This document shows, piece after piece, positions 17,835 through 52,214 of a stretch of 64,000 nt of DNA (its first letter is position 1; each line of letters starts with the position of its first letter). The notes under the pieces were generated by a model. That model worked only from the letters and a program-made list of their open reading frames with translations, searched no databases and was not told where the DNA came from. The position numbers and the translations under genes were made by a program. Source of the stretch: a virus (lineage: Duplodnaviria > Heunggongvirae > Uroviricota > Caudoviricetes); IMG/VR virus record IMGVR_UViG_3300021255_002251, one strand, 5' to 3'.

Positions 17835-18044
17835 TTATGTCTCCGAAAACCCTCTTAACACATTCAGTATCGCTATCAATGTCTCTTGGCAACTCTTGAC
17901 AGAAGCCTTCGGGTTGGCTATCTGCGAGAAGTCTGCCTTTCTCAAATCTCCTAGAGAAATAGTCATGCCGTTGATCTTCAAGAAATTTGCTATGTGGACG
18001 GAATCACGCTTACTCGTTTTTTTCTTTGAGTTTTTCTTGCACAT
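17835..18044 (-). CDS. small basic protein
   Basis: 69-aa ORF between the fibre gene and a structural gene. Confidence 0.25.
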   Translation of the reverse strand: MCKKNSKKKTSKRDSVHIANFLKINGMTISLGDLRKADFSQIANPKASVKSCQETLIAILNVLRGFSET

Positions 18045-20089: not shown

Positions 20090-20875
20090 TCATCGGAAGA
20101 TTTGCTTGCCGGCGAAACCATTTCCCAGCATAGTGCTCTGTGGGTTCTCATATGCCCGTAGGGTCTTGTCGCTCTTCAATTCGTTCCACAGCGCTTCATA
20201 CGACTTGCGCGAATCGTAGTGTCGAAGAAGAGCATTTGTAAACTGCCCTCCTGTTGAAGCTCCATACGAATAGGTATCGTCAGGGCATCCGCTCCAGCAC
20301 AGCATCGAGAACTTCTGCTGCTCATTCAACCTATGATCCCACGATAGAGGTGGCCGAACCTTAAACCCAGGAGCGCGATACATCGTCTGCGAATGGCAAC
20401 AATCAAAGTATAGGAACACCCTCCCCTTGCTCTTGCTTATGATGCTCCATATCTCATTGTCTCGCATGTAAGTATCGTAGAGACATAGGAACTCATCCTT
20501 CCCGTCCACCTCTTCATTTCCAGTATTGTAAAACGGCTCGCTCCCTCCGTGTCCGGAATAGCAGAATATCACAAGCCCATCCGTTGCGCTTGCAATGGCC
20601 TTGTTCAATGCAGCCGTCACATTCGCTTTCGTGGCATTGGAATCTCTAAAGAGAACAATGTTCGGAGTATATGCCGATAGAAGCTTAAACATCCTATTCG
20701 CATCGTACCCCGCCCCCGGACAATCGCCAGCGAACCTCGAATTCTCCATACCAACAACCACCACATATGTGTTGGTTGATTTCGCTTCTGGCTGTATAGT
20801 TCCATCGGACTTGCATCCGCCGAATCCTAGACACATTCCAAACGCAACTAGAAATGCCATTACATGCTTCTTCAT
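20090..20875 (-). CDS. lipoprotein with caspase-like (peptidase C14) domain
   Basis: Lipobox MKKHVMAFLVAFGMCLGFGGC. Catalytic dyad context YSGHGG (His) and FDCCHSQ (Cys), as in caspase / metacaspase / CHAT folds. Confidence 0.55.
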   Translation of the reverse strand: MKKHVMAFLVAFGMCLGFGGCKSDGTIQPEAKSTNTYVVVVGMENSRFAGDCPGAGYDANRMFKLLSAYTPNIVLFRDSNATKANVTAALNKAIASATDGLVIFCYSGHGGSEPFYNTGNEEVDGKDEFLCLYDTYMRDNEIWSIISKSKGRVFLYFDCCHSQTMYRAPGFKVRPPLSWDHRLNEQQKFSMLCWSGCPDDTYSYGASTGGQFTNALLRHYDSRKSYEALWNELKSDKTLRAYENPQSTMLGNGFAGKQIFR

Positions 20876-20897: not shown

Positions 20898-21338
20898 TTA
20901 TTCCTTTGGCTCTGCTATCTGGTTTCCCTTCAAGTAAATGTAGATGTCTAAGTCCGTCCCGCCTCTCTCGTTATCCCTCGTGTCGACCTCTACACCATAC
21001 CCATTAGAGGAATTGTTTTTGGCTCCAATCTTTTCCAAGAAGTCCTCAAAGTAAGTCTGAAGGTCTTCCGCCGAAACATCTTCCTGCATTCCTGGTATCG
21101 CCATGTCGTAGCGAATGTATGTCTCATCCCCCATCTTCCCCTCATCTGGACTTCTATAGAACTTCTCTTCGAGAAGGTCTTCCTTTATGTCCAGCGGAGG
21201 AGCATAATCATCCAAGTAAGATACGAATGCCCTCTGTATGCTATCGGGATTCCATAGTTCGACTACTTCAGCAAGTTCGTCGAATGCCACAACCCCCGAT
21301 TGAGCATACAGATATGAGTAGAAATTCGTCTCTCCCAT
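20898..21338 (-). CDS. hypothetical acidic protein
   Basis: 146-aa ORF, Asp/Glu-rich. Confidence 0.4.
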   Translation of the reverse strand: MGETNFYSYLYAQSGVVAFDELAEVVELWNPDSIQRAFVSYLDDYAPPLDIKEDLLEEKFYRSPDEGKMGDETYIRYDMAIPGMQEDVSAEDLQTYFEDFLEKIGAKNNSSNGYGVEVDTRDNERGGTDLDIYIYLKGNQIAEPKE

Positions 21339-27501: not shown

Positions 27502-27999
27502 TTAACCTAAAATGTACTTCTCATACTTGCTTCTCTCATAAATGCCGTCTCCCTTTATCGGCAACCAGCACCACTCATCTAGGTCCATCTTAATGGCCAT
27601 GTTCACTCCATCATCGTACACCCATCTAGGATTCTCTAGATTGAATGCCAAGAAAGCCTCATGGCGATTCTCGAACCTTTCGAAGTTACGCATGACCTTT
27701 CCGCATGAATCTTTTTCTTTTATAAGTTTCTCCCCGTCATCCCAATTGATGTAGCTCACATAGTCGCTCGATATGCGAGCAACCATGACCTTGTCAGCAA
27801 AAACATCTATTTCTGCACGTATCCTGTCACTTAACGTGGCACATGTGTAGTCTTGATTGTCTGGTAGTAATTTCATCACAAATACATAAGGAGTATCTGA
27901 ATCCTCCTCTACAACTTTCCCAAGCTCTTGTAGGGTCTGCCTAACCCTAACTCGGCTATTTGGTTTTTTTGTAATCAGTATCACATTGAATGCTTTCAT
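27502..27999 (-). CDS. hypothetical protein
   Basis: 165-aa ORF. Confidence 0.4.
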   Translation of the reverse strand: MKAFNVILITKKPNSRVRVRQTLQELGKVVEEDSDTPYVFVMKLLPDNQDYTCATLSDRIRAEIDVFADKVMVARISSDYVSYINWDDGEKLIKEKDSCGKVMRNFERFENRHEAFLAFNLENPRWVYDDGVNMAIKMDLDEWCWLPIKGDGIYERSKYEKYILG

Positions 28000-28377: not shown

Positions 28378-29160
28378 CTAAATTGTTGCGGGTGCATATA
28401 GCAAAGCCATTGCATCAGTCTTTATCCAGTCGGCTGATGGGCACCCTACCCCAAAATACTTTTCCATCGCCTTTGGTTCACGATTGAACGGAGGCGTGAC
28501 AATATGGAATCCATGCGGAGTCTTAAGAAAAGTCACATCCTCTGACACATACTTCGCGCTGACCTTCGGCATGAATTCCTTTTCTTCATCTGTTCTATTT
28601 CCAAACTTCAACACTAGAGCACGTCGAATCTTGTAGGAAATCCAAGAAGCATACTCCCTTACGACAAAGTTATCTGATGTGGGATTGAAATATTGTTCTC
28701 TCCAAGCGATAGATTTCTTGAATGTTGAATCATCATCTTCATCAATATCTATAACCCACCGCTTATGCCATTTTTCTTCAGTATCATGCATCCCAGCCAC
28801 ACAGGTGCGAATCAGGTGGTCAAAATGGACATTCATAGATCCTTTTTGTAACGTATCTGAAACCTTGCCGTGCAAATTCCAAAGCACCAGTCTGCAAGAC
28901 CTTCTTTGCGGGAGAATATATGCCCTTGCATTATTCTGTTCGCAAAGCGCCATGATTGCCTTTTTTTTCTTATCAAAATATTCCTTGTCATAAACAAAAT
29001 AGTGCTTGATAAGGCGATTGTCCTCATCCACACCTTCAATCATCTTGCCTTTCGTGTCCTTTCTCCTCTTAAGGACAAGAACCATATAGAATTCTCCGTC
29101 TCCATCAAACCGAAGAATGTTGTCTTTTACTTCATTGAAATTGTCTATCGGGTAAACCAT
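28378..29160 (-). CDS. hypothetical protein (260 aa)
   Basis: ORF; a single H-x-T-x-like element HIVT but no second one, so no family assigned. Confidence 0.4.
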   Translation of the reverse strand: MVYPIDNFNEVKDNILRFDGDGEFYMVLVLKRRKDTKGKMIEGVDEDNRLIKHYFVYDKEYFDKKKKAIMALCEQNNARAYILPQRRSCRLVLWNLHGKVSDTLQKGSMNVHFDHLIRTCVAGMHDTEEKWHKRWVIDIDEDDDSTFKKSIAWREQYFNPTSDNFVVREYASWISYKIRRALVLKFGNRTDEEKEFMPKVSAKYVSEDVTFLKTPHGFHIVTPPFNREPKAMEKYFGVGCPSADWIKTDAMALLYAPATI

Positions 29161-29477
29161 TACACGACACTCCCATCTGGAACGACTTCCTTAACAATCA
29201 TATCCGCCTCTATCTTTGAAACAATTGTCCTTACTATCGTTACAATCTCTTCACGGACGATGTTCCCTCGCCTAGCAAGGCTATCAATATACCAGTTACA
29301 GGCTTTCATAAACTGCTCCTGCTTAGCAGGGTCTATCTCCAACCTCGCCTTGTATCTGCACTTGACGGCAGCGAAGATGCATCCTCCTAGACCAAAACCA
29401 GCATCGAAGATGTAGTCTATTACCTGCCGTCCGTTCTTCAGAAGAAACTTCTTGTTCGTATTGTCATTCTCGCCCAT
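29160..29477 (-). CDS. hypothetical protein
   Basis: 105-aa ORF. Confidence 0.35.
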   Translation of the reverse strand: MGENDNTNKKFLLKNGRQVIDYIFDAGFGLGGCIFAAVKCRYKARLEIDPAKQEQFMKACNWYIDSLARRGNIVREEIVTIVRTIVSKIEADMIVKEVVPDGSVV

Positions 29478-30046: not shown

Positions 30047-30232
30047 TTAATCCATAACCTGTGCAGCCAAGAACGTGACGAACGATATTATCGCACATGC
30101 TACCGTCAAGACCATAAGATTGTGGTAGTAAGTGCTAACATTAGATGATGCTACCGCTCCGCAAAGAAGAATCGGCGACAGCGGCACCTCTAGTGCCGTA
30201 ATCTTCGAGATTGACAATAATAACTTTCTCAT
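30047..30232 (-). CDS. small membrane protein (internal start of the listed 120-aa ORF)
   Basis: MRKLLLSISKITALEVPLSPILLCGAVASSNVSTYYHNLMVLTVACAIISFVTFLAAQV with a GGAGGA SD 6 nt upstream. The upstream part of the listed ORF overlaps promoter 30284-30323. Confidence 0.4.
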   Translation of the reverse strand: MRKLLLSISKITALEVPLSPILLCGAVASSNVSTYYHNLMVLTVACAIISFVTFLAAQVMD

Positions 30233-30283: not shown

Positions 30284-30323
30284 ATTATACCACACTCTTG
30301 ACTCGGCTTTCAAGGGGGTGTAG
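30284..30323 (-). promoter_or_regulatory. sigma70-type promoter: GGGGGTGTAG box, TTGAAA (30308-30313), 18 nt, TGTGGTATAAT (30284-30289)
   Basis: Minus strand reads CTACACCCCCTTGAAAGCCGAGTCAAGAGTGTGGTATAAT. Confidence 0.6.
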
Positions 30324-30332
30324 TTTTTTTTC

Positions 30333-31168: not shown

Positions 31169-32797
31169 TTAAGCCTTCTTCTTGGAATCGCCGCCGTTGC
31201 TCCCAAGCAACTTGGTTGCGAGAACTCCTCCGATTGCGGATTTCACATCAAAGCCAAGAGACTTGGAAAGTCCATCGAACAACTGCGTGGTGTGGTCGAT
31301 GACCCCTGCGGCAATCTTCCCTGACTGATCGCCATACATCGTGATGTTTCCGACCTTCGTGTAAGCGGAAGCCACTCCAGTTGCGATTGCGGGGAGAACA
31401 TTGACGAACTCCTTTACTACCTGCAACTGCAAGTCCATCTTTGCCGCTTCTCCGTACTTCGCCATGGCATCGGCTTTCTTTTCCAGGCCCTCTGCCTCTG
31501 CGATTGCCTTTGCGCGGATAGCCTCTGCCTCCGCATCGCCCTTCGCCTTGATGACATAAGCCTCATTCTCACCCTGCACCTTGTTGGCATCTGCGATTGC
31601 CTTGATTGCGGCGGCTTCGCGCTCTGCTGCAATCTGCTTCGCCTCTGCTTCCTTCGCCTGCTGGAAAAGTGCGGCATCCGCAGCGGCCTTTGTAGCATCA
31701 GCCTCACGCTCAGCCTCTATCTGGACGGCTTCAGCCTTGCGGGTTCGCTCAGCAAGTTCCGCCTCCGCATTCTTCTGTGTGGTGTAGAGACGAGCATCGG
31801 CCTCCTGCTGTGCGGCGAACTTCTCCGCTTCCGCCTTCTTGCGGATTTCGGCATCGAGTTCCTTTTCGGTGATTGCCACCTTCCTCTGAGAGAGTTCGGT
31901 CTTCTTCTCGAGTTCTATGATGCTCGCATCACCCTTCGTTGCTTCGAGAATCTTACGCTGCTCTTCCGCCTGGATCCCCTTTGCGGCTTCTGCTATCGCA
32001 ATCTGAATGTCGGCCTGCTTCTTAAGGTCGGCTTTCTTGATTTCGAGTTCGTTGTTGCGAATCGCAATCTCCGTCTCAGCCGCTACGCGGGCATCGTTGG
32101 CTTCCTTTGCAGCCTTTGCCTTGGCCTGTTCCACCTGAGCCTCCGCATTCGCACGAGCGATTGCCGCATCCTTGGAGATGGTTGCAATGTTGTCAATACC
32201 AAGGTTCTCGATCGCCTTGTCATCGTCCGTGAAGTTCTGGACATTGAACGAGACGATTTCCAAACCCATCCTCTCCAAGTCGGGTGCGGCATTCTTCTTT
32301 ACCGCCTCCGCAAACTGCTGGCGATTGAGAACCATCTCCTTGGTTGTCATTTCACCAACAATCTCGCGCATGTTGCCTTCGAGGACTTCTTTGGCATTTT
32401 CGCTGATGTATTCTGGTGAGGCATTGAGGAAGTTCATCGCCGCAAGTGCGAGCATCTGCTCTTCACGGCTCACCTTGATGTTCACGACTGCATCCACATT
32501 GACGTTGATGAAGTCCTTGTTGGGGACCTTCTGCTTCGTCTTCACGTCAACCTGAATGAGTTCGAGCGTCACCACGTCAAGGCGCTCGAAGAACGGAATC
32601 CTAAAGCCTGCCCTGCCGATAAGAGTCCGCTTTCGGAGACCGGATATGATATAGGCTTTGTCGGGCGGTGCCTTGCAATACCCGAGCGCGAACACTCCAA
32701 TGAAGAATAGAACACCAACGGCGATACCAACGATTCCCCAAGGGAAACCGCCTATTGACGATGCCGCAAAAGCGGCGGTGACTACCTGTGTGTGCAT
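31169..32797 (-). CDS. flotillin-like SPFH / Band-7 membrane protein
   Basis: N-terminal TM segment. SPFH core ISGLRKRTLIGRAGFRIPFFERLDVVTLELIQVDV. Long Ala/Glu/Lys-rich flotillin-type coiled-coil repeats follow. Confidence 0.8.
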   Translation of the reverse strand: MHTQVVTAAFAASSIGGFPWGIVGIAVGVLFFIGVFALGYCKAPPDKAYIISGLRKRTLIGRAGFRIPFFERLDVVTLELIQVDVKTKQKVPNKDFINVNVDAVVNIKVSREEQMLALAAMNFLNASPEYISENAKEVLEGNMREIVGEMTTKEMVLNRQQFAEAVKKNAAPDLERMGLEIVSFNVQNFTDDDKAIENLGIDNIATISKDAAIARANAEAQVEQAKAKAAKEANDARVAAETEIAIRNNELEIKKADLKKQADIQIAIAEAAKGIQAEEQRKILEATKGDASIIELEKKTELSQRKVAITEKELDAEIRKKAEAEKFAAQQEADARLYTTQKNAEAELAERTRKAEAVQIEAEREADATKAAADAALFQQAKEAEAKQIAAEREAAAIKAIADANKVQGENEAYVIKAKGDAEAEAIRAKAIAEAEGLEKKADAMAKYGEAAKMDLQLQVVKEFVNVLPAIATGVASAYTKVGNITMYGDQSGKIAAGVIDHTTQLFDGLSKSLGFDVKSAIGGVLATKLLGSNGGDSKKKA

Positions 32798-32838: not shown

Positions 32839-33135
32839 TCATTCTACAACATACCAGTCTTCAGAGAGCATGTCAGTCTGTGAAGCCAGCCAGCCTGTGA
32901 GAACCTTGAAGTCTGTGGTGAACATGCGGATTGAGCCGAGACATTCAATCTCTCCGCCTTTTGATTCAGCGAGCGCTTTCAGATGCGGATCTCTGCACCA
33001 TTCAGCCTTCACGGAAGAGGCTGGAAGAAGCCAGAGTGACATACCTTTGCCATTCCATCCTTCTCGTGCAACTCTCTTCCCTTGCTTCAGAGCACGAATT
33101 GCATCTCCAAAATCCATTAAGTTATTCTCGTTCAT
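32839..33135 (-). CDS. DUF2829 family protein (Tad2-like), copy 1
   Basis: MNENNLMDFGDAIRALKQGKRVAREGWNGKGM..EDWYVVE. The start was chosen at the internal Met of the listed ORF. Confidence 0.6.
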   Translation of the reverse strand: MNENNLMDFGDAIRALKQGKRVAREGWNGKGMSLWLLPASSVKAEWCRDPHLKALAESKGGEIECLGSIRMFTTDFKVLTGWLASQTDMLSEDWYVVE

Positions 33136-33146
33136 GTCCTTCGCTC

Positions 33147-33455
33147 CTATTCCACCACTACCCAGTCTTCGGCCAAAAGGTCGGAGTTTGTAGCAAGCCA
33201 CCCAACCATCAACTTGTTGTCGCGGGTCTTCATTACGAAAGTCCCCAACTTCTCAATTGAGGCATTTCGCCCAAATGCAAATTTTAGGTTTTCGCTCATG
33301 GCATCCATCCTTGGCAGTTTGCAGGACGGTTCTAGCCAGATGTACATGTTGGGATCGAAAGACACGATGTTGCCGTTCCATCCCTTCCTAGTCATCTTCT
33401 TCCCGACCTTGAGCAGTTTCAGGGCTTCAGAAAAGTCCATCGATCTCTCAAACAT
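33147..33455 (-). CDS. DUF2829 family protein (Tad2-like), copy 2
   Basis: MDFSEALKLLKVGKKMTRKGWNGN...EDWVVVE; a paralog of the adjacent gene. Confidence 0.65.
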   Translation of the reverse strand: MFERSMDFSEALKLLKVGKKMTRKGWNGNIVSFDPNMYIWLEPSCKLPRMDAMSENLKFAFGRNASIEKLGTFVMKTRDNKLMVGWLATNSDLLAEDWVVVE

Positions 33456-33471: not shown

Positions 33472-34656
33472 TTAGTCTTCCTGCTTCATCAAATAGCGGT
33501 TGCTTACCGCCTTGAATGAAAGATTATGGATTGTATTGCTCTTGAAAACAATCCCCTCACGCTCATTCCCCCTAGCCGTCTTGCCCTCTGCGAACATAAG
33601 GACTGCATCCATGGTAGGATATTCCGTGAATACCTTTATAGACGGGCTAATGAGCTGAACATGTTGCAACCCAAGTTTCTCACACACTTCGCGCCGGTTA
33701 TTGGGAAGCAAATACATCTGGTTCTTGATGTCGTAAATCTTGAATACATGCCATTCATGTTCCTGATACTTGTCTCTATCGGCATTTATGCCTGGTCCAA
33801 CCAGTTCTCCTTGAATCGCATATTCAAGTCCTTCGGACTCAAATAGGTTCTTCAACTTCTTCTCGACATCATACTTCTCTGCCATCTGATACCCGAGAGG
33901 AATCCCGCCTTTTGCAAGTTCCGACTTGATTCGAAGATTCCTAGTGCAAACGCCAAAAGGTATTTCAGCATCAATGGTAGGAGAGTAAAACATCGTAAGA
34001 GAAGCCCCGTCATCTTTGGCAGTTGCTTCCCAGTCCATGTCTTTGTACTTCTCAAACCAGTCACTGAGATTCTGAACCCTTTCCTCATCAGTCTTAGGGC
34101 AATAGTCAGATGGGAACCTACCAATTGCATCTGCACTAATCGGATTACTGCCAGTTATCGGTTGTAACTGCTCTTTCACCTCATCATAATGTTCTACCTT
34201 AAGCAGCCTTGTAACATCTGCCCCCAACAATGGCTGTAGAACAAATTGTCCGTTATCAGTCTCCAAGGCTATCGTATCCGTGCCGTCTCCTTTAATCCCT
34301 CCCCCCTGACAACAATAGGCGATTTCGGGAAAGTCTGATATCGGCATGACAAGTCCCTGCGACACAACTCCACGCAACTTGCATGTCTTTATCCTTATGC
34401 CTTGGCGAATAACGTTCCCGCTCTTGCTAACGAACTTCTTTAAGCATCTGTCTTTTAGGAATGCATATCGGGCATCAGAATCATCAAGAAACGAATCTAT
34501 CTCAAAATACACGGCTAAGTCGCCAACATGAAACTCTCCTTTCTGGGTAACAACCTTCCAGCCCTTACCTTTCATCTCGACCCCCTCTAGGCGGTCGGCA
34601 TTTTCTATTGGCGAAACCTTACTGATTTCAACTATGCTCGCTAGTTTTCTAGACAT
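33472..34656 (-). CDS. ATP-dependent RNA ligase with N-terminal OB-fold tRNA-binding-like domain
   Basis: N-terminal KLASIVEISKVSPIENADRLEGVEM...VGDLAVYFEIDSFL (Myf/EMAP-like). Nucleotidyltransferase motif I KDDGAS (KxDG). Motif IV/V EGIVFK. Confidence 0.6.
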   Translation of the reverse strand: MSRKLASIVEISKVSPIENADRLEGVEMKGKGWKVVTQKGEFHVGDLAVYFEIDSFLDDSDARYAFLKDRCLKKFVSKSGNVIRQGIRIKTCKLRGVVSQGLVMPISDFPEIAYCCQGGGIKGDGTDTIALETDNGQFVLQPLLGADVTRLLKVEHYDEVKEQLQPITGSNPISADAIGRFPSDYCPKTDEERVQNLSDWFEKYKDMDWEATAKDDGASLTMFYSPTIDAEIPFGVCTRNLRIKSELAKGGIPLGYQMAEKYDVEKKLKNLFESEGLEYAIQGELVGPGINADRDKYQEHEWHVFKIYDIKNQMYLLPNNRREVCEKLGLQHVQLISPSIKVFTEYPTMDAVLMFAEGKTARGNEREGIVFKSNTIHNLSFKAVSNRYLMKQED

Positions 34657-34854: not shown

Positions 34855-35195
34855 CCCGCTTTTTCCTTCTTGATATCCTCAAAAACCTTCAAAGCCTCTG
34901 TTGCCACTTCACAAGTCTCATTCTCCAAACCCAATGCATCTATGCAGATTATTCCGCTTTTAGCATCTGGGCTATCGTGGCAGAAATCATCAATGCGGCA
35001 AATAGGACAGCATGTCATGTTTGGGCAAATCCTGTTTGTGATATGCCAAACCTCTCCTCCAAACCGCAATGCTAGTACATTTAGAAGTAAGGCCACCTGC
35101 TTGTTCTCACTAGCTTCGCACTCATTGCAGTTTTTATCACATAAGTATTTTGTTATCCTCATTGCGCTCCTTCTTTGCAATCTCTTCTTGAACAA
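34836..35195 (-). CDS. Cys-rich hypothetical protein
   Basis: Multiple CxxC pairs: CDKNCNEC and CCPIC. Confidence 0.3.
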   Translation of the reverse strand: MFKKRLQRRSAMRITKYLCDKNCNECEASENKQVALLLNVLALRFGGEVWHITNRICPNMTCCPICRIDDFCHDSPDAKSGIICIDALGLENETCEVATEALKVFEDIKKEKAGCESKG

Positions 35196-35484
35196 ACCAT
35201 TTTAGTTCGTTCCACCCTGTGAGAACAATCCCAAAACAAACCTTTGTTCTAGGCATTAGAGCAAAGTAAACCTTTCCAGCAACAGAATAATGTCCAAGCC
35301 AAGGAGTCTGCCACTCTTGTGTACAATCTCCAAATCGAACGAACCTTTGTCGGCCAAGATTGTCAATCTTACCATGTAACGACTTCCCTTGCCCATTCCA
35401 CACATGGGCAATATAGTAGTCAGTCTTCTTAACTAACTTGTTTAGAAGTTCAATGTGTCTCTTGTGTCTGCTCTTCTTCTTCAT
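35137..35484 (-). CDS. hypothetical protein
   Basis: 115-aa ORF downstream of promoter 35509-35538. Confidence 0.4.
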   Translation of the reverse strand: MKKKSRHKRHIELLNKLVKKTDYYIAHVWNGQGKSLHGKIDNLGRQRFVRFGDCTQEWQTPWLGHYSVAGKVYFALMPRTKVCFGIVLTGWNELKWFVQEEIAKKERNEDNKILM

Positions 35485-35508
35485 CGCCTATTGTCCTTGA
35501 CGAGGGAT

Positions 35509-35555: not shown

Positions 35556-37478
35556 TTAGCGAATAAACATGACAAATTGGTAGAACACTGCTGCCTGATA
35601 GGCTCCTATGTCTAGTCCGCCACCATATGTCCTTGGAGAACCACGTAAATCTTTTGAGTTTAGCATCCAATTATCAATTGGTATCTGCTCTATTAAGCCG
35701 CCAAAACTCAAGTGGCAAGCAGGAGAAGATTTGTCGATTGCATAAGGGTTGCTAGCATCAAGACTCAATGCGAACTTCGGTTTGAAGATTGCTCGATCAT
35801 ACACATAGGTGTTAACCAAAGTCGCATCAACTCCATCCTCTATTCCTGCTATGCTATTTGCTATTTTCAGATATTGGAGGTCTTTCTTGCTTATGTCATA
35901 ATTGAGAGAACCTATATAATCACTGGTAGCATCCCATCCGTTGTTTGTATAATATTCGTACCAGGTCAAGTCGCTACTCACATAATCATTCAAAGAACTC
36001 AAAGAACCAGCAGATAAGGGGGATAGTTGGGCTTCTCGATATTTTGCCTTAAAAGTCATTGGACTAGCACCATCCCATCCCATCGCATAATAATATTCTC
36101 GATATGTTAAAGAGTATGAGGCCGGTTGATATCCATCAGTAATTTGTGCTATGACCATCCGATATACCTTATCCATTTCACCATAATCTATAGTGATTTC
36201 ATATCCATCTGGGTAGCCCTCTGGGTCATAGGATTTATAATAGTTCGTTGTTCCTCTTTCAGGGAAATATCCGTCCCACCCAAATGCTACAAGCCGCTGC
36301 CCTTTTGTCAATGCGATAGTCTTATATGTTCCATTCGTAGCCACTTCCTTATTCACTTTCGTCCCCAATATGCTGTTTCCATAGAACAGGCTATTGGAAA
36401 TGTTCATGTGTGCACTCATCCCAGGACTCCAATTTGCCGGCGGAACAAAAACCCTATACCCGCTATTGCTAACAATTGTAGAGCAAAGAATCTGCGGCAC
36501 AAATCGAGACAATATCACTGAACCGCTCTGATCCATCTCATAACTAAATTCCGCTTGTTTAGATAAATCAAAATCCTCCCCATTTGATATAAGTGAATTC
36601 CGAACATCAAAGAACCCCATGAAGATTACACCATTCGTTGCAGTAATCCGGCCTCTGTCAATCTCGCAATTGTAGAACCTGCTGATATTCGGTTCCCCAA
36701 CATCAGACAATACATATCTATATGCCTTACATTCAGACAGGTCGCTCCCTTTTCTGGCCTTATTCCCCTTGCTAACACTGTCTTCTACATATCCGTTTGC
36801 AATAGCGCCGCCGTTTGTCTGTGCCACATTCCCAGAGAATAGGGAGCTATAGACTCTGCTCCCATTGTAGATAGCTCCGCCATGAGACATGGCTTTGTTC
36901 CCAAAAAACTTGCACCCTACTATAGTAGAAGTGCTGTCAGAAGATTTGAGCGCTGCAATTGCTCCGCCTCTAAAAGCCGTGTTGTTAGTAAATATGCAGT
37001 TGGCAATCCTACATTCGTTTGATGCTAGTCCTAAATATATTCCTCCTCCACTCAATGTATCTTTTGGCTTGTTAGTTGTATTCATGTTATTGATGCAGTT
37101 CCCTCCAATAAGCATCATGCTACTAATCTTGCATCCGGGAGCATTTATGTATATGAGCCTATTCGTAGAACCTACTAATACAACATCTTCCGGTCTCCCA
37201 GTCCTCCCTCTAAGGCTTAGTCCGTTTGTAATATATAAATGTCCAACCCTACTCATGCAAGGTTGCTCATCGAGATGATAAGGCGAACCTACCTCACTTA
37301 CAATTATAGTATCACCCTGCCGTCCAGTAGCAACAGCATCTATTAGTTCTAACACATTGCTAACAGTAATGATGCCAGTATCTCTTCCCCTCAATACTGC
37401 GACAGTAACTGCTGTGCCAGCGGCAAGAGCAGCAACTCCGCCAGCCATCAGTACGGCTCGAACCCATTTCTTCTTCAT
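35556..37478 (-). CDS. signal-peptide protein with right-handed parallel beta-helix (pectate-lyase / Pmp-like repeats); possible depolymerase or surface-binding protein
   Basis: N-terminal MKKKWVRAVLMAGGVAALAAGTAVTVAVL. Repeated GGAI(Y/A) beta-helix rungs: GGGIYLG, RGGAIAA, HGGAIYNG, NGGAIANG. Confidence 0.55.
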   Translation of the reverse strand: MKKKWVRAVLMAGGVAALAAGTAVTVAVLRGRDTGIITVSNVLELIDAVATGRQGDTIIVSEVGSPYHLDEQPCMSRVGHLYITNGLSLRGRTGRPEDVVLVGSTNRLIYINAPGCKISSMMLIGGNCINNMNTTNKPKDTLSGGGIYLGLASNECRIANCIFTNNTAFRGGAIAALKSSDSTSTIVGCKFFGNKAMSHGGAIYNGSRVYSSLFSGNVAQTNGGAIANGYVEDSVSKGNKARKGSDLSECKAYRYVLSDVGEPNISRFYNCEIDRGRITATNGVIFMGFFDVRNSLISNGEDFDLSKQAEFSYEMDQSGSVILSRFVPQILCSTIVSNSGYRVFVPPANWSPGMSAHMNISNSLFYGNSILGTKVNKEVATNGTYKTIALTKGQRLVAFGWDGYFPERGTTNYYKSYDPEGYPDGYEITIDYGEMDKVYRMVIAQITDGYQPASYSLTYREYYYAMGWDGASPMTFKAKYREAQLSPLSAGSLSSLNDYVSSDLTWYEYYTNNGWDATSDYIGSLNYDISKKDLQYLKIANSIAGIEDGVDATLVNTYVYDRAIFKPKFALSLDASNPYAIDKSSPACHLSFGGLIEQIPIDNWMLNSKDLRGSPRTYGGGLDIGAYQAAVFYQFVMFIR

Positions 37479-40762: not shown

Positions 40763-41380
40763 TTAATACCGATTGTCTGGGTTGTCCAAATCAAATCTGC
40801 GAGACAGAGGGATAACCCTACCCTCATTATCTCTGGTTACTTCTGCCCTCTTCATCTGCTTTGCATCGAAAATGCACCACTCTTCTCGCATGTCGCCAGC
40901 CCAGAACACTCCATCCATCTTCAACTTCCCTCCACCTAGGTATGCGGTAAGTCTCGCAGATACCTTTCCGTCATTAGCATGAATGACTGCATCATGCAGG
41001 TCTCTGTCCATAATGAATGGGGCTGTCACATTGATGTAGAAGCCCTGCATCCAATATCCGTATTCTACGGCCTTCCATGCTTCCTCTTCTGCTCCGTAGA
41101 AATAGACTCCCTCTCCAAGCCAACCTGCATCAGACTTGTTCTTTCGGTGAATCTGGTATACCCAGATGTCCCTTTTGTTGTCTCTACGCCATACTACCTT
41201 TTTAGCCCTTGTGTCAGGCATCTTCTGCCTGAAATACTTGTCTAGGAGGGTTGAAGTAGTTTCGTAGTCATGCCTAGCGGCCGCCTCAAGATATGTTATG
41301 TCGTCATCTGTAAGGTCTTTGTAGAACCTCTCGGTTCTTGCTCTCTCATCGAACACGAAACTATAGTAGTTGTCCGCCAT
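40763..41380 (-). CDS. hypothetical protein (205 aa)
   Basis: ORF; no family assigned. Confidence 0.4.
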   Translation of the reverse strand: MADNYYSFVFDERARTERFYKDLTDDDITYLEAAARHDYETTSTLLDKYFRQKMPDTRAKKVVWRRDNKRDIWVYQIHRKNKSDAGWLGEGVYFYGAEEEAWKAVEYGYWMQGFYINVTAPFIMDRDLHDAVIHANDGKVSARLTAYLGGGKLKMDGVFWAGDMREEWCIFDAKQMKRAEVTRDNEGRVIPLSRRFDLDNPDNRY

Positions 41381-41429: not shown

Positions 41430-42647
41430 TCATCTTTTGTGCTTCTTTAGCATATACCCAGAGTTTAACATATTCAACAAATAGACAATGATAAGCATAC
41501 TTATGACGGCCTTATACCCTCCGAGATGGCTTCCTACATAAAGTGCCGCCTGATTCCCGACAAGTCCTGCCACTCCCCATGCAGATAGAACCGCTCCGTG
41601 AATCTTAGATATGTCCGACATGCCATAATGGTCTGCCAAAATACCCGGTATGACGGAAAATCCAGCACCATAGCAGGCATTGATGATAAGTAGGGCTATC
41701 CCTATTATCACTGCGCACTTAAGGCTAACCGCCATCGTCAAGAATGAGATAAGAGATATATAAATTAGGATATGCTTCCTAATAGCAAGGCGGTCGCTCC
41801 ACCATGCAAAGAAGAACCTTCCTCCGCCATTCATTAGTCCACATAACCCTATCACAAAGGTGATAGTAGATGCACGATAACCTATGTCAGGGGCATCCAT
41901 CATCTGCTTTGCCAATGGGATTAGACAGAGACCAGCAGAGATGTTAAGAAACATAAAAAGCCAAGACTGCAGAAAGAACCTATCACCTAGCAAGCGAACA
42001 TAAGAGAAAGAACTGATTGCCGAATTAACAATGTCTGCATTATTGGCTGCATCTGGCTTCCGAAGCATCGTAGATGCAATGCCCATCATGACAAGGTAGA
42101 TGACGGCGAAAGCCATCATCACGAAATACATTCCCTTGCTGTCGGTTGCTACATTGAACAAGTCATAAAGTCCTCCGATTCCGCAACACCCTTTGTATAT
42201 AATTGTCGAAAGAGTAGAACCCAACCCAAATGAAATGATTGGGACTGCAGCGGCGATAGCCTTATTGTCTGGGAACCATAGCATCATCGTCTTCACTGGG
42301 GTTATATAGATAACTCCAGTCCCTAGCCCTAGAAGAAAACCATAGCCAAGATAGATAGACCAGAGTGACTTGAAGTATATTCCGGCAGAGGTTACGGCTA
42401 GTCCCATTATGAATAGAGCCATTCCTATCATGGTGGAACGATGAATGTTCTTCTCCACAATCTTACCGAAGAATGCAGCCCCCATCCCCAAAAAGAAAAT
42501 CCCCAATGAGAATGCGAACTGCACCGCCTGCTGCGTCTCACCTATGTAAGATGCTATCTCAGAAGAGAAGTTAGTGAAAGCATAAATCTGCCCGACAGAA
42601 ACGGCGAGCAGAAATGCAGGGAGCACTGAATGAAAGAACCTTTGCAT
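41430..42647 (-). CDS. major facilitator superfamily (MFS) transporter, 12 TM
   Basis: Twelve hydrophobic segments in a 6+6 arrangement; typical MFS length of 405 aa. Confidence 0.7.
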   Translation of the reverse strand: MQRFFHSVLPAFLLAVSVGQIYAFTNFSSEIASYIGETQQAVQFAFSLGIFFLGMGAAFFGKIVEKNIHRSTMIGMALFIMGLAVTSAGIYFKSLWSIYLGYGFLLGLGTGVIYITPVKTMMLWFPDNKAIAAAVPIISFGLGSTLSTIIYKGCCGIGGLYDLFNVATDSKGMYFVMMAFAVIYLVMMGIASTMLRKPDAANNADIVNSAISSFSYVRLLGDRFFLQSWLFMFLNISAGLCLIPLAKQMMDAPDIGYRASTITFVIGLCGLMNGGGRFFFAWWSDRLAIRKHILIYISLISFLTMAVSLKCAVIIGIALLIINACYGAGFSVIPGILADHYGMSDISKIHGAVLSAWGVAGLVGNQAALYVGSHLGGYKAVISMLIIVYLLNMLNSGYMLKKHKR

Positions 42648-45632: not shown

Positions 45633-45664
45633 CGTCTTGTCCTTCCTATCCGAAAGCGAAGGAA

Positions 45665-45700
45665 ATTATACCACAGAATTGGTATAGCTGTAAAGGGGGG
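45665..45700 (-). promoter_or_regulatory. sigma70-type promoter: GGGGGG, TTTACA (45689-45694), 18 nt, TGTGGTATAAT (45665-45670)
   Basis: Minus strand reads CCCCCCCTTTACAGCTATACCAATTCTGTGGTATAAT. Confidence 0.55.
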
Positions 45701-46440
45701 TGACAATAATTGGACGTTGAATTTTTTAGATGTGAGGCGGTATCCTTCCTATTAGACGAGGCTACCCTTTCGGGTAGCATGGTGGGACTCGAACCCACAT
45801 CTCCGCCTATAAATTGAATCGGCCGCCGTAGGTGCAATTAGACGATAGCAAGCCGAAAAACCATCATCCGTCTCCGAAAAGGAATCAACATATTTATTCA
45901 CCGATTAAAACGGTTGCACCGATGAATGGAAAAAGAAATGGAGCGGGGCTACCGATACGGTTTCGGGTGAGCTCACCCTACCTCCGCAGCCTATGACAGG
46001 GTCGGCTAGTTTTTTTTCCGAATACCGCCTCCCGCTCGGAAACCCCAGAACTCAACACTCTGGATTAAGTGGTAGTCTGGCACCCCACAATGGACACGGG
46101 AGTGTGTGTAGAAAAGGTGTTTTACCATTGTTAAACTATGGGATCGATACTATCTAGCCCCACGGGAGACCTCGAACCTCCATCTCCTTATCTACACGAA
46201 AAAACCTTCTGCCAAGACTCTTGATTCATGTCAATTAATAGTCCATCGCTCACTTGGCAGAAAAAGATTTCGCTAGTCTGCCTAACATCTGCAGCACCAG
46301 AGTAGAGTTGTGTAGACTAGGAGTTTTGCTCTCCGCATCCTAGCGAAAAATGGTAGCGGAAGTGGGAAGTGCGCCCAACGTGCCTTTCGGCTCTGGCTTA
46401 TGAGACCAGTGACTTTGACTTCTAGTCTATTCCGCAATCT
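45701..46440. other. 740-nt ORF-free region with a tRNA-like T-arm (45781-45798), a GCTACCC-GAAA-GGGTAGC hairpin (45761-45778) and a TTCCTATTA motif (45745-45753)
   Basis: No ORF of 60 aa or more on either strand. GGTGGGACTCGAACCCAC is the reverse complement of a canonical T-arm, but no cloverleaf could be completed. Confidence 0.3.
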
Positions 46441-46859: not shown

Positions 46860-47845
46860 TCTTCCTTCTCCCTTATTGCCGTGACATTTGCAATGACCGC
46901 CGCATGCGAAGGTTGCCCCCGCTCTAAATCGGGTTACTGTTCGATTTACATGCTTATCGTAGGCTCTTATCCTCCTGCTGCGCTGACAGAGGAAAGGAAG
47001 TTCGCCAATTGTGCTCATGAGCGGAAATCAAGAAATCTTCCGTGCATCCGACTGGACTACCGGCAGGTGCCATGTTTCAGGGCTAGCCAATAGCTACGAG
47101 GACTTCCCCAGTCTATTCCTAGAAGTGCGCTCTCTCCTAGATTATCACATTGATTGTTTCGGAACGGACGCTGGTCTTCTAAACTCGGGCCGAACTGAAA
47201 TGGGTTTTCGCCATGGCAAGTCACCCACTATGGCCGTATTAACAGCCTCGTCATCCAGTCCTATCCGCCAAGGTTTTACTCCCTCTCTGCACGGAAGAAA
47301 AAGGTTAAGTCTATCCCTCTTGCGGAGAGCTTTAGCAGCCGTATTTTCCCGATGCCTCGGTACTGCTACTCACGGTCAAAGACAGTGACAGTGGCCTCTT
47401 TTGGGGTCGCATGATTTCGCCTTTCAAGGCTACCCTTTGGCTATCAGCATCTTTTATGGTTTCCCAATCCTGTGTGCTGACTTAGGAGGTTCTCCGGAAC
47501 CACGAGAGCCCATTCCTTTCCTTTGCCGAGGAGGTCGATGGGAACGACCTAGCAAGGTGAATAAGTCTATGTCAACGAAGATTTTCGCATTAGCTACTCT
47601 ACTCTTCGCCAACTCTTGCCTCATGGGATTCTTTGTGAACACGGACTCCCAATCACCGACATTCCGTAAGACAGACGGAACACCCTTCGCATCCTGGGTT
47701 TACTCCGAGGAAGGATTTTCTTCGCCTCGGTCGATTCACAGTCAAATAGCACATGTCGGGAATCGAACCCAATCAAGCACCGTCGTGCGAGCCCATCGGC
47801 CCCGTGGAACCTACCACGCCTATGTGCTAAAAACTTTCAGTACCT
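46860..47845 (-). other. about 1 kb without credible ORFs; candidate structured RNA region
   Basis: Only short, unsupported ORFs in any frame. Contains a tRNA-like element (47749-47828) and RNase-P-like sequence strings; see findings. Confidence 0.3.
47749..47828 (-). ncRNA. tRNA-like element with canonical acceptor, D and T arms but a non-canonical anticodon region
   Basis: Acceptor GCACATA / CATGTGC, D-arm CGTGG-TAGGTT-CCACG, T-arm TTGGG-TTCGATT-CCCGA. A 31-nt segment replaces the anticodon arm. Confidence 0.3.
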
Positions 47846-49773: not shown

Positions 49774-49944
49774 AGGCGGGGTGTACTAGCATCTCCCAAG
49801 AAGGTGGAAGAGACATAGGAACACCGGCTGCCCAAAGAAGAGAAAAGGAGCGGGAAGTATTTTCATTGATTAACAGTCAAGTGCCCAAAGGGCTTAATAG
49901 GAACTTCCTATGCTCAAAAAACCGTGTGCGATGTGTATGTCTAG

Positions 49945-50018
49945 TCAATCGCTCTACCACCTGAGCTACACGAACAGCTAAGCCGTCCATGGCAGGACTC
50001 GAACCCGCGACTAATTGA
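49945..50018 (-). ncRNA. permuted tRNA-like unit 1: 3' half (T-arm 49992-50008, acceptor-3' 49985-49991), 9-nt linker, 5' half (acceptor-5' 49969-49975, D-arm 49950-49968)
   Basis: In the minus-strand RNA the order is TCAAT-TAGTC-GCGGGTTCGAGTCCTGC-CATGGAC-G-GCTTAGCT-GTTCGTG-TA-GCTCAGGTGGTAGAGC-G-ATTGA. The acceptor strands pair 7/7 (GTTCGTG with CATGGAC, including G-U pairs) and the anticodon-stem halves pair 5/5 (ATTGA with TCAAT), but only in permuted order. Confidence 0.35.
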
Positions 50019-50264
50019 TTTCAGAAATAGGAACACAATATGCACACCTATGGTAAACGGCGAGAAGTATCTGAACCGAAAGAAGCCTGTGGCTTCTTGA
50101 TGGAGTCGAACCATCAAGTAATAGGAACTTCCTATGCCGTAAAATCAACAGAGACGGAGAGTAAATGACACATGGTTGTTGCCACGTGCTTCGTTCGCAG
50201 CGAATGATAGGAACTCTCGATGTCTCTAAAATGAACATGAAAACGAAAAGCGGCGGAATGTATT

Positions 50265-50338
50265 ATAAGGCGCTCTACCACTGAGCTAAATGGAGGCATA
50301 AGCCATCCACTACGGGATTCGAACCCGCGACCTCCTGC
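50265..50338 (-). ncRNA. permuted tRNA-like unit 2 (same 3' half, 9-nt linker, 5' half architecture)
   Basis: CCCGT-AGTGGAT-GGCTTATGC-CTCCATT-TA-GCTCAGTGGTAGAGCG. The acceptor pairs 6/7; the linker has the same length and the same GGCTTA start as unit 1. Confidence 0.3.
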
Positions 50339-50568
50339 TTACCAGGCATTAATAGGAACATTCTTTGCCGCAAAAAGAGATTTGTGCGAGTAGTATGGAT
50401 TTCATGGTGGAGGCTTATGCCGCGCCCCCAAGCGGTTAATAGGAACTACCTCTGCACAAAGAAATAAAAAGGGCGGAGAGTATCTTTCATCCAAAGAAAA
50501 ATAGGAACCCTCTTTGCCCAAAAATAGTTTTCAATTCATACGCCCCACTCGAGGGACGACCTAAACGA

Positions 50569-50641
50569 TGAAACCAGATGGACTCGAACCACCTCCTTCC
50601 AACGATTAATTGGAAATGCTTTCCTGTTACACCATGGTTTC
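50569..50641 (-). ncRNA. tRNA-like gene with an unusual anticodon loop (UUAAUCG) and no encoded CCA
   Basis: Acceptor GAAACCA / TGGTTTC pairs 7/7. T-arm GGTGG-TTCGAGT-CCATC. The anticodon stem TCCAA/TTGGA encloses TTAATCG, which has a pyrimidine at position 37; the anticodon assignment is ambiguous. Confidence 0.35.
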
Positions 50642-50867
50642 ACGTGGGAACTTTCCGAGTACCCAAAACTCCTGTTCCTTTGCGATACATGCGGTCTCTG
50701 ATATCTCCCAAGCCGAGCTTCCAGAAACAACTTGTAAACACCCATCGCATGAACAGCCTATCTCTTCAGTGGACCGTCACCGGATTAGCACCGTGCTGCC
50801 AGACCTATCGTTGCATGCTTGATTAGCACCCCTTGTACTTCGGGGCCGAACAGCCTGACTCTAAAGA

Positions 50868-50942
50868 TGGAGCAAGATGCCGAACTCGCATCGGCGTAAA
50901 CTACCTTGGAAGGGTAGCGCATAACTTCTCTGCCAATCTTGC
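50868..50942 (-). tRNA. tRNA-Gly(TCC)
   Basis: Cloverleaf by hand. Acceptor GCAAGAT/ATCTTGC, anticodon arm CTACC-CTTCCAA-GGTAG, T-arm GCCGA-TGCGAGT-TCGGC, CCA encoded. Confidence 0.7.
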
Positions 50943-50947
50943 AAAAA

Positions 50948-51022
50948 TGGAGCGAACTACGGGATTCGAACCCATGACCTCATCCTTGGCAAGGATACGT
51001 ACTACCACTGTACTAAGTCCGC
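50948..51022 (-). tRNA. tRNA-Gly(GCC)
   Basis: Acceptor GCGGACT/AGTTCGC (G4-U69), anticodon loop TTGCCAA, T-arm ATGGG-TTCGAAT-CCCGT, CCA encoded. Confidence 0.8.
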
Positions 51023-51113
51023 ATTTGCCCCTTATCCCACCACTTTCAGCGGGGGCTACCTCGTTTCCTCATATAGACCGACAGAGCGGGACTCCGGCGG
51101 AGAGGCTTCTAAA

Positions 51114-51189
51114 TGGAGCGACAGATGGGTTACGATCCCACGACATCAACCTTGGGAAGGTTGCACTCTACCAACTGAGTTACTGTCGC
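51114..51189 (-). tRNA. tRNA-Gly(CCC)
   Basis: Acceptor GCGACAG/CTGTCGC, anticodon arm CAACC-TTCCCAA-GGTTG, CCA encoded. Confidence 0.8.
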
Positions 51190-51196
51190 ATGAAAT

Positions 51197-51276
51197 TGGT
51201 GGAACCGATGGGAGTCGAACCCACTATTTGTCTGCTTGCAAAGCAGATGCCTTTACCACACTCGAGCCACGGCCCC
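51197..51276 (-). tRNA. tRNA-Ala(TGC)
   Basis: Acceptor GGGGCCG/CGGTTCC with G3-U70, anticodon arm TCTGC-TTTGCAA-GCAGA, CCA encoded. Confidence 0.75.
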
Positions 51277-51587
51277 ATTGAAAATGTTTACCAGCGGTTC
51301 TCAGATGCTTTTAGTTTTGTGGTATCGCATCCACAAACTTCAACCGCAGTCATAGCATCATTAGGCTCTTGGATTCGATAGGCATACATCCCATTCGGGC
51401 ATCGCTACCGTTCATGCCTAAAGTTTGGTTCTGCCTTACACGTTTCCTGCAAGGTGGAATCCAATGGTATGCAGAATTTAGCCTTTTGAGCCTATCTGCG
51501 TCTCGCCGCAATGTGAAATCCATCACTACAATGAGGAGCGACATCAAGGTCGGGACTCTTGTTGTTTGAACTAATACCATCAGAAAT

Positions 51588-51661
51588 TGGTGGACACGTT
51601 GAGAATCGAACTCAAGTCTTCTCGTTGCGAACGAGATGTTCTACCACTGAACTAGCGGCCC
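51588..51661 (-). tRNA. tRNA-Ala(CGC)-like; acceptor stem imperfect
   Basis: D-arm, anticodon arm TCTCG-TTCGCAA-CGAGA and T-arm TTGAG-TTCGATT-CTCAA are canonical. G3-U70 is present, but the 5' GGGCCGC versus 3' CGTGTCC strands leave three mismatches at positions 5-7. Confidence 0.45.
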
Positions 51662-51804
51662 ATGAAAATAAAGGACGATTGTCAAGAAGGACATCGTATT
51701 TCCATTAATGCCCATCACGTTTTCTTTCCCCAACTATTCACCCCAACGAAATCATTGGAATTGGGAAATGATAAACACTGATTTTGTCACAACCGCCATG
51801 GAAA

Positions 51805-51878
51805 TGGTGGACACGGCAGGAATTGAACCTGCATCTCTTCTCTGCCAGAGAAGCATTCTACCGTTGAACTATCGGCCC
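51805..51878 (-). tRNA. tRNA-Ala(GGC)-like; acceptor stem imperfect
   Basis: Anticodon arm CTTCT-CTGGCAG-AGAAG, T-arm GCAGG-TTCAATT-CCTGC, G3-U70 present. 5' GGGCCGA versus 3' CGTGTCC gives the same mismatch pattern as the Ala(CGC) gene. Confidence 0.45.
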
Positions 51879-51891
51879 ATTGAAATCGTTT

Positions 51892-51968
51892 TGGTGGACC
51901 CTGTAGGGAACGATCCTACAACCGTCTGGGTATGGGCCAGATGCTCTAACCAATTGAGCTAAGGGTCC
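51892..51968 (-). tRNA. tRNA-Met/Ile2(CAT), elongator type
   Basis: Acceptor GGACCCT/AGGGTCC (G1-C72 paired), anticodon loop CCCATAC, CCA encoded. Confidence 0.8.
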
Positions 51969-51973
51969 GAAAT

Positions 51974-52051
51974 TGGTCGGAGTGGAGGGATTCGAACCCC
52001 CGACGTTCTGCTCCCAAAGCAGACGCTCTGGCCAGGCTGAGCTACACTCCG
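51974..52051 (-). tRNA. tRNA-Pro(TGG)
   Basis: Acceptor CGGAGTG/CACTCCG, anticodon arm TCTGC-TTTGGGA-GCAGA, CCA encoded. Confidence 0.8.
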
Positions 52052-52056
52052 CTTGA

Positions 52057-52128: not shown

Positions 52129-52131
52129 GTC

Positions 52132-52206: not shown

Positions 52207-52214
52207 AAGTCTCA

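Follow-up and report, generated by a model that had tools for sequence, protein, structure and literature searches.

The site at positions 30284-30323 (minus strand) of IMG/VR record IMGVR_UViG_3300021255_002251, a 64,000-nt stretch of Caudoviricetes DNA which was analyzed at full length and is referred to here as the window, belongs to a family of six closely similar sites. These six sites are probably early or middle promoters read by the primary sigma factor of the host, most of them carry a C-rich upstream box (C-box) in an architecture shared with cellular promoters, and the host appears not to be a member of the Bacteroidetes, the Kiritimatiellae being the likeliest group. In kind, the best-supported reading is that the promoters are ordinary, i.e. 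of the same kind as the early promoters of phages T4, T5 and SPO1. The novelty is modest and lies in the likely host from the Planctomycetes-Verrucomicrobia-Chlamydiae (PVC) group and in a shared C-box architecture for which no description was found.

On the coding strand, the family consensus is an A/T tract, CTACACCCCC, TTGAAA or TTTACA, gCC, N12, TGGTATAAT, N6 and CG. The initial annotation had proposed a scan with a position weight matrix (PWM) as a check. A two-block PWM was built from 21 sites of related contigs, the window sites and their orthologues being left out. It picked out six sites in the window and no others; all are on the coding strand and score 34.0-43.4 bits, as against a maximum of 15.8 among 100 Markov shuffles. 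The pattern TTGAAAGCC-N12-TGGTATAAT, allowing up to 3 mismatches, had 4 matches in the window (0.05 expected), and the family sites ranked at the top of every 20-kb segment in a generic sigma70 scan (11/12, with TG); low-stringency sigma70 matches overall were not enriched. Five sites (-35 starts at 2166, 1418, 35538, 30313 and 45694) have an 18-nt spacer and match TTGACA/TATAAT at all but one of the 12 positions, and the site at 53129 has a 17-nt spacer and matches at 10. The -35 hexamers (TTGAAA or TTTACA in all six sites), the spacers of 17-18 nt and the placement on the minus strand 5' of gene starts thus agree with the initial annotation: all six sites are intergenic, with the end of the -10 lying 24-51 nt before a start codon, or head a tRNA array. 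The predominance of 18-nt spacers, the conserved CG 7-8 nt after the -10 and a leader box, CAAGGACAA, at three of the sites are new relative to that description.

Two of the earlier claims were upheld in part. Seven near-identical promoters had been counted, and all seven locations do contain the sequence described, but family membership was borne out for six only; the seventh, at 60565-60594, lacks both the family -35 (site 60593, TAGACT-17-TATAAT, matches the -35 consensus at 4/6) and the C-box, and it is a separate extended -10 candidate (P7x, Table 1) outside the promoter family. The extended -10 TGnTATAAT, which had been assigned to all, occurs in five of the six family sites and in the seventh site, but at 1389-1428 GAG stands in place of TGn.

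The window is part of a huge phage with a genome of about 270 kb: its NrdD protein is 100% identical to a protein of the ENA contig ERZ12302814 NODE_17 (270,640 bp), with which it shares gene order. A relative about 92% identical in DNA is present in IMG/VR as a contig of 251,769 bp. In an alignment of four promoter regions with the orthologous regions of this relative, no substitution was seen in the 60 positions of the -35 hexamers and the extended -10 nonamers, compared to 6 in 58 in the spacers (Fisher P=0.012) and 52 in 645 at all other positions (P=0.017). Every core base of P4 is kept in its orthologue in related contig L061, where the box has an A to C change, and the differences in the P5 orthologue (L003) are confined to the spacer and leader. 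P6 is conserved in the relative, whereas an 11-codon open reading frame (ORF) following it loses its ATG there; P7x is also conserved, but its position is coding. In distant relatives (one with a portal protein 78% identical, and further contigs from similar sample types), CCCCC-TTTACA-aCC-N12-TGnTATAAT-AT recurs with an almost invariant spacing of 18 nt and with spacers unrelated in sequence. Near-consensus hexamers, spacing within 16-18 nt, co-orientation with transcription units, TGn in five of the six sites, and selection on the contact bases with a free spacer are all features expected of extended -10 promoters of the sigma70/sigmaA type, the class named in the initial annotation.

Table 1. 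Promoters and other features located in the window
Feature	Position	Strand	Elements	Scores (PWM; consensus matches)	Target or remark
P1	1389-1428	minus	C-box CTACACCCCC (1419-1428); -35 TTTACA (1413-1418); 18-nt spacer; GAG-TATAAT, -10 at 1389-1394	34.0 bits; 11/12, no TG	ORF for a 62-aa membrane protein, starting at 1353; start codon 35 nt after -10
P2	2137-2166	minus	TTGAAA-18-TGCTATAAT; no C-box	34.3 bits; 11/12 with TG	NUDIX hydrolase gene 1436-2101 (NUDIX domain); start codon 35 nt after -10
P3 (flagged site)	30284-30331	minus	A8 tract (30324-30331); C-box (30314-30323); -35 TTGAAA (30308-30313); 18-nt spacer; TGGTATAAT at 30284-30292	43.4 bits (best); search pattern matched exactly	Small ORF 30047-30232 and genes downstream
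P4	35509-35548	minus	Degenerate C-box CTATCACCTA; TTGAAA-18-TGGTATAAT	35.6 bits	Heads ORF 35137-35484
P5	45665-45704	minus	Box TGTCACCCCCC; TTTACA-18-TGGTATAAT	36.4 bits	45297-45632, then phosphoesterase, DnaG primase and MFS transporter genes (Pfam)
P6	53101-53159	minus	A/T tract (53140-53159); C-box CTACACCCCA; TTGAAA-17-TGGTATACT	38.4 bits	Non-coding leader of ~470 nt, then tRNA array
P7x (extended -10 candidate)	60565-60593	minus	TAGACT-17-TGGTATAAT	4.5 bits (below null maximum of 15.8); 10/12 with TG	Within 3' end of ORF 60566-60781; 38 nt upstream of RecE-like gene
Leader box CAAGGACAA	30267-30275; also 1371-1379, 35491-35499	minus	Just after predicted start; then CA-rich leader and Shine-Dalgarno
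tRNA array	50567-52627	minus	15-16 tRNA genes by ARAGORN and Rfam
MFS transporter gene	41430-42647	minus	Oxalate/formate antiporter-like		Marker of host origin
SPFH/flotillin gene	31169-32797	minus			Second marker of host origin

The window has a GC content of 46.4%, and nearly all of its genes are on the minus strand. Annotation with Pfam and PHROGs assigned i) structural genes for the portal, head-completion proteins and two fibre proteins of 1,365 aa, one with BspA-type LRR_5 repeats and the other with CBM_5_12, ii) genes for NrdD, NrdG, DnaG primase, RecE, RecT, RusA, dUTPase, a NUDIX hydrolase and RNA ligase, and iii) genes for DNA methylases, a major facilitator superfamily (MFS) transporter and flotillin; the BspA-type repeats and the anaerobic ribonucleotide reductase pointed out in the initial annotation were both recovered. 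Searches with Pfam and PHROGs turned up no gene for a sigma factor or an RNA polymerase within the window.

The family sites would be read by host RNA polymerase carrying a primary (sigma70/sigmaA-type) sigma factor, region 4 of which would contact the -35 hexamer (TTGAAA or TTTACA, each 5 of 6) and regions 3.0 and 2.4 the extended -10 TGnTATAAT. Transcription starts prefer a pyrimidine at -1 followed by a purine at +1, and here the start is predicted to lie 7-8 nt after the -10, at the conserved C-G. The C-terminal domains of the alpha subunits (alpha-CTDs) are probably contacted by the A/T tract, which precedes the -35 by about 10 nt, and the C-box occupies the gap between this tract and the -35. 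The predicted transcript has a CA-rich and presumably unstructured leader with a Shine-Dalgarno sequence at its end. The units headed by the sites are non-structural (nucleotide metabolism, replication, recombination, small membrane proteins and the tRNA array), and the structural genes (portal, head completion and fibres) lack family promoters. Given these units, the sites are most likely promoters of the early or middle class for which no phage factor is required.

The early promoters of T4, T5 and the Bacillus phage SPO1 are read by the unmodified host sigma70/sigmaA holoenzyme. Like the early promoters of T4, the present sites exist in many near-identical copies, have a near-consensus -35 (GTTTAC in T4), an extended -10 TGnTATAAT and an A/T-rich upstream tract, and are placed before early, non-structural genes and tRNA clusters. 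Unlike those of T4, T5 and SPO1, they have a C-rich box between the A/T tract and the -35 and mostly an 18-nt spacer, their start sites are predictions, and both the genome and the probable host phylum are unrelated.

A G-rich box upstream of the -35, i.e. C-rich on the coding strand, had been interpreted as a possible UP-like or activator element specific to this phage. We found it to be present in four or five of the six family sites: it is exact at 1419-1428 and 30314-30323, has one mismatch at 53130-53139, is partial at 45695-45704 and 35539-48, and is absent at 2167-2176 as well as upstream of 60593. A separate, variable A/T tract is located further upstream in most sites. The UP element of E. 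coli rrnB P1 is an alpha-CTD site at -40 to -60 with the proximal subsite consensus AAAAAARNR. The C-box resembles it in position, overlapping the proximal subsite, with the A/T tract near the distal-subsite position in most sites. By sequence, however, the box is C-rich (CTACACCCCC or CCCCC), not A/T-rich, and misses AAAWWTWTTTT and AAAAAARNR, whereas independently chosen Clostridia promoters commonly have AAAAAnCnC there.

The supposed specificity to this phage did not hold either, as the same architecture was found in unrelated viral contigs and in at least 120 bacterial loci. A viral scan with CCCC-N-TTKAMA-NCC-N11-13-TGNTAYAMT gave 93 matches, in relatives as well as in numerous unrelated contigs, the latter arranged as AAAATTTTT-n5-CCCCC-TTGACA-nCC; an initial impression of enrichment was withdrawn. 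Matches of a broader pattern, ACACCCCNTTKAMAGCC, in viral contigs were mostly due to chance and were set aside. A different arrangement, GGGGG-TTGACA-CCCCC followed by a T-run and then TGnTATAAT, is widespread in unrelated viral contigs (L268-L386) and resembles an intrinsic terminator in which the loop doubles as the -35 of the promoter that follows.

The bacterial loci were found with CCCCC-TTKAMA-nCC-N11-13-TGnTATAMT. Among the matches listed, about 84 were from Clostridia (mainly gut Oscillospiraceae, Ruminococcus and Eubacteriales of animals), about 12 from Chloroflexota, 3 from Armatimonadota, 3 from one Treponema metagenome-assembled genome (MAG), 2 from Kiritimatiellae, 1 from Verrucomicrobia and 3 from Bacteroidales; Proteobacteria in the strict sense were absent among the at least 120 loci listed for the full architecture. 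Nine of the 121 matches listed directly precede tRNA genes, at a distance of 9-24 nt, in members of the Clostridia, Kiritimatiellae and Verrucomicrobia, and these can be regarded as working cellular promoters. In 73 other promoters from the same Clostridia loci, chosen independently of the box, the usual upstream sequence is TTTT...AAAAAnCnC, and CCCC abuts the -35 in 6 of the 73 (0.35 expected). In the phage sites, the A/T tract, C-box, -35, nCC and extended -10 follow one another in the order and at the distances seen in the tRNA and housekeeping promoters of Clostridia, Kiritimatiellae and Verrucomicrobia, with A(T/C) after the -10 in both; the spacers in Kiritimatiellae are 17 or 18 nt. 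In contrast to these cellular promoters (mostly TTGACA, 17 nt), the phage prefers TTGAAA/TTTACA and 18 nt, and its C-box is far more consistent. Judged from sequence comparison, the C-box appears to copy the strong-promoter architecture, tRNA promoters included, of gut Clostridia, Chloroflexota and PVC bacteria and to be no invention of the phage. No description of a C-rich element upstream of the -35 was found in open-access full text.

Since promoter grammar alone picks no phylum, genes of likely host origin were examined. No cultured relative gives a host, as no match to cultured phages was detected at the DNA level and the portal protein is merely 35% identical to that of Pbunavirus. NrdD was tried and rejected as a host marker: its relatives (66-100% identity) are all on phage-like contigs of 190-455 kb, the lone label of 'Bacteroidales' being on a phage-like contig. 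Taken together, they point to an extensive and varied clade of huge gut phages to which this phage is related. Beyond the phage clade, the MFS transporter has more than 100 homologue clusters at 62-68% identity, and all 5 of its named cellular homologues are from Kiritimatiellae MAGs (63-65% identity) in chromosomal context, with gyrB, fumarase, nadA, lnt and glutamine synthetase genes as neighbours. The named cellular homologues of the flotillin are from Victivallales, also of the PVC group (58-61% identity); the one locus inspected is chromosomal and adjoins Mur ligase and ispD genes.

The Kiritimatiellae loci, having been selected via the MFS gene, are independent of the promoter motif. In 3 of their 7 strong promoter-like sites, CCCC(C) abuts the -35 and is combined with TGGTAnAAT-AT, and spacers are 17 or 18 nt; examples are aaaataCCCCC-TTGCAA-N14-TGGTATATT-at before an HU gene and cccctCCCC-TTGACA-N14-TGGTATAAT-at. 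A tRNA-Leu promoter of a sheep-rumen Kiritimatiellae reads CCCCC-TTGACA-N15-TGATATAAT, with an 18-nt spacer. Shine-Dalgarno sequences precede 32 of 74 genes in these loci (9.3 expected), the GC content of one locus (L387) is 47.6% compared to 46.4% in the phage, and a Kiritimatiellae contig with the MFS homologue is from assembly ERZ12302821, a sibling of the phage's own assembly ERZ12302814. We therefore give roughly even odds to a gut or rumen host among the Kiritimatiellae of the PVC group, an estimate drawn from gene and promoter comparisons. The initial proposal of Firmicutes or Proteobacteria is probably wrong, in that the MFS and flotillin genes point to the PVC group, although Clostridia are still a live rival.

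Several points weigh against the interpretation of the sites as host-read early or middle promoters of a Kiritimatiellae phage. Start sites and timing are predictions, and the search for a phage sigma factor or RNA polymerase covered 64 of the ~270 kb. The family spacer is 18 nt, compared to 17 nt in 64 of the 73 cellular promoters of the sampled Clostridia loci, so that the phage promoters could be suboptimal or factor-dependent. The viral control scan with GGGG in place of CCCC was confounded, giving at least 120 matches; because these are dominated by GGGGG-TTGACA-CCCCC-T-run overlaps that match nCC, the viral CCCC counts are no evidence of enrichment. The host assignment depends on two genes at 58-66% identity with few homologues named, about 70% of the at least 120 genome loci listed are from Clostridia and only 2 from Kiritimatiellae in a scan that had no control pattern, and a related phage fragment was deposited in a MAG labelled Bacteroidales.

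The strongest competing explanation, to which we assign perhaps one chance in four, retains the same promoters and places them in gut Clostridia of the Oscillospirales (Ruminococcus or Oscillospiraceae), with the MFS and flotillin genes acquired from co-habiting PVC bacteria. The majority of Clostridia among the listed loci (~84 of at least 120, mostly animal-gut Oscillospiraceae, Ruminococcus and Eubacteriales), the CCCC abutting the -35 in independent Clostridia promoters and the strong Shine-Dalgarno use in the window are all consistent with such a host. However, Clostridia far outnumber Kiritimatiellae in the collection, so that raw counts from this uncontrolled scan are not comparable; 88% of the Clostridia spacers are 17 nt whereas those of the phage are 18 nt; and the best 120 matches of the MFS transporter or the flotillin include no named Clostridia homologue, in spite of the abundance of Clostridia MAGs.

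It is less probable, indeed rather unlikely, that the promoters are read with help, either from a phage sigma factor or from an activator bound to the C-box at about -37 to -46 (class II), which would make them middle and not immediate-early promoters. T4 middle promoters carry a MotA box at -30. Activator-dependent middle promoters such as those of T4 MotA and Mu Pm likewise have an extra conserved box upstream of or overlapping the -35, plus a good -10, but the phage sites keep a good -35, and their box is non-palindromic and is also found at cellular promoters with no phage present. At Mu Pm, Mor is reported to be centred at -43.5 (PMC4390567). An activator would suit the frequency of the C-box, seen in ~70-80% of sites in the phage lineage as compared to 8% of the sampled Clostridia loci, as well as the non-optimal 18-nt spacer, and about 200 kb of the genome lie outside the window. 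On the other side, cellular tRNA promoters bear the same box with no phage involved, a near-consensus -35 with an extended -10 is normally sufficient, and P2 (no box) and P4 (degenerate box) score like the other family sites. No helix-turn-helix (HTH) or sigma gene adjoins the sites, save for a weak HTH_38 match in 4810-5304.

That the host belongs to the Bacteroidales, with the sigma70-like motifs serving a phage-encoded polymerase or being incidental, is very improbable, and the same applies to a host from the Bacteroidota as a whole. Bacteroidetes sigmaAB promoters have TTTG at about -33 and TAnnTTTG at about -7, and beyond their role as promoters they have nothing in common with the phage sites. 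In the window, TAnnTTTG is depleted (23 vs 35.9 expected), the combined TTTG and TAnnTTTG pattern occurs 10 times (6.2 expected), and neither is found in the upstream gaps of genes. AGGAGG-like ribosome-binding sites, as reported initially, are frequent, with Shine-Dalgarno cores in 48 of 67 genes (72%; 13.7 expected); together with canonical terminators and sigma70 promoters, these data uphold the earlier exclusion of the Bacteroidetes. A Bacteroidales host would fit the BspA-type LRR_5 repeats, which are known in Bacteroidetes, and the related phage fragment (NrdD 74% identical) in the MAG labelled Bacteroidales; however, this fragment is phage-like, with its own sigma70 extended -10 family and Shine-Dalgarno sites, and binning of phage contigs is unreliable. 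Likewise, the three Bacteroidales genome matches are on contigs of 2-13 kb, one of which (L182) carries the promoter of a phage group also seen among the viral contigs. The fragment itself (L394; NCBI GCA_024400495.1 JAKSMR010000032.1, 28 kb) encodes NrdD/NrdG 74% identical to those of the window among small unknown genes, has six or seven copies of TTGCGC-N14-TGnTATACT followed by CGTTGCGAGGC and CA-rich leaders, and was probably wrongly binned.

It is hardly credible that the repeats are not promoters but some other dispersed element (e.g. signals for recombination or packaging, or what is left of duplicated intergenic cassettes), since, even though the family could have spread via duplication and a subset of sites share CTACA, a part of the box, as well as the leader CAAGGACAA, conservation is limited to the bases contacted by sigma70 while spacers diverge, orientation and distance to the start codons are fixed, and inverted repeats bracketing the -10 are not significant. 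Visual inspection had suggested such repeats in P1, P3 and P4 and in some of the relatives, but they were dropped as a family feature, as arms of at least 5 nt were found in 6 of 30 sites vs 3.3 by permutation (P=0.09; mean arm length, P=0.16). The family accordingly shows no significant sign of the hairpin type, in which arms flank the -10 as in N4 early or single-stranded DNA promoters. A single case of a perfect 11-bp inverted repeat (TGACCGCAAGA / TCTTGCGGTCA) bracketing the -10 was seen at L088 1421 (IMGVR_UViG_3300037400_002787). The leader box CAAGGACAA, located in the leaders of three sites, has 5 exact matches (0.62 expected), 3 of them at family promoters. Several minus-strand units end in hairpin-plus-T-run terminators, e.g. 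at 4755-4781 and 57126-57147.

The tRNA array is probably transcribed from P6, because it is on the same strand and no other family promoter or strong terminator lies between the two. Adjoining the array, two sub-threshold Rfam matches to YrlA (Y RNA-like) were detected on the minus strand at 49920-50048 (40.4 bits, E 2e-6) and 50265-50336 (33.8 bits), the gathering score being 69; an RNA ligase gene is located at 33472-34656. Long non-coding stretches on the minus strand surround the array (45633-46281, 47019-47453, 49774-50010 and 52628-53094) and contain tRNA-like halves, i.e. T-arm/acceptor-like GGTTCGAGTCC motifs and a 5' half, GTTCGTGTAGCTCAGGTGGTAGAGC, for which ARAGORN makes no call; an extra weak Rfam tRNA lies at 46354-46436. 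Such halves may represent tRNAs that are interrupted, split or degraded, or else structured RNAs of another kind.

A second motif, T[CT]GGCA[AT], was found 27-50 nt upstream of 8 gene starts (2.3 expected), preceding genes 4092-4712, 17835-18044, 20898-21338, 27502-27999, 29160-29477, 35556-37478, 40763-41380 and 54141-56243, with portal, head-completion and fibre-operon genes among the targets. It may mark a late-promoter class. A sigma54 reading of this motif (TYGGCAW) was rejected by eye, the GG-to-GC spacing being a misfit. The related contig L394 has an analogue, TTGAC-N5-CGGCAA.

Four further observations on gene content, with all located genes on the minus strand, are worth recording: 1) Tandem genes similar to Tad2 (Thoeris anti-defence 2) at 32839-33201 and 33147-33455 (E 1e-22 and 1e-19) are located between the flotillin and RNA ligase genes. 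2) The terminase large subunit at 61420-62211 (263 aa) has a match over the N-terminal ATPase part only (Terminase_3 positions 6-200 of 201); an unannotated ORF of 215 aa (60769-61416) is directly downstream, with an HNH_3 gene (57334-58044) further downstream, and the large-subunit gene may be split or interrupted. 3) A caspase-domain (Peptidase_C14) protein with a lipoprotein-type signal peptide, MKKHVMAFLVAFGMCLGFGGC, is encoded at 20090-20875 and is an unusual phage cargo. 4) Insertions are suggested by the size of some NrdD relatives (1,037-1,072 aa), a few of which contain a GIY-YIG domain (PF01541).

No report of a jumbo phage of the Kiritimatiellae came up when the paper library was searched. 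It is a tentative and decidedly speculative proposal that this is the first huge-phage lineage with Kiritimatiellota hosts and that the CCCCC box is an undescribed, recognised element of strong primary-sigma promoters copied by phages. If so, strong promoters of stable RNAs in gut Clostridia, Chloroflexota and PVC bacteria would have the box in common, and the lineage would comprise the ~270-kb phage together with the related phages found on 190-455 kb contigs. Promoter and ribosome-binding grammar provides a cheap, alignment-free clue to the host, which here correctly excludes the Bacteroidetes; its limit is that the grammar is common to several phyla, and it is the evidence on gene donors that moves the likely host to the Kiritimatiellae. 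The six sites provide a map of the presumed early transcription units, including a promoter-driven tRNA array, and are candidates for strong promoters with which to build genetic tools for gut anaerobes that are difficult to manipulate.

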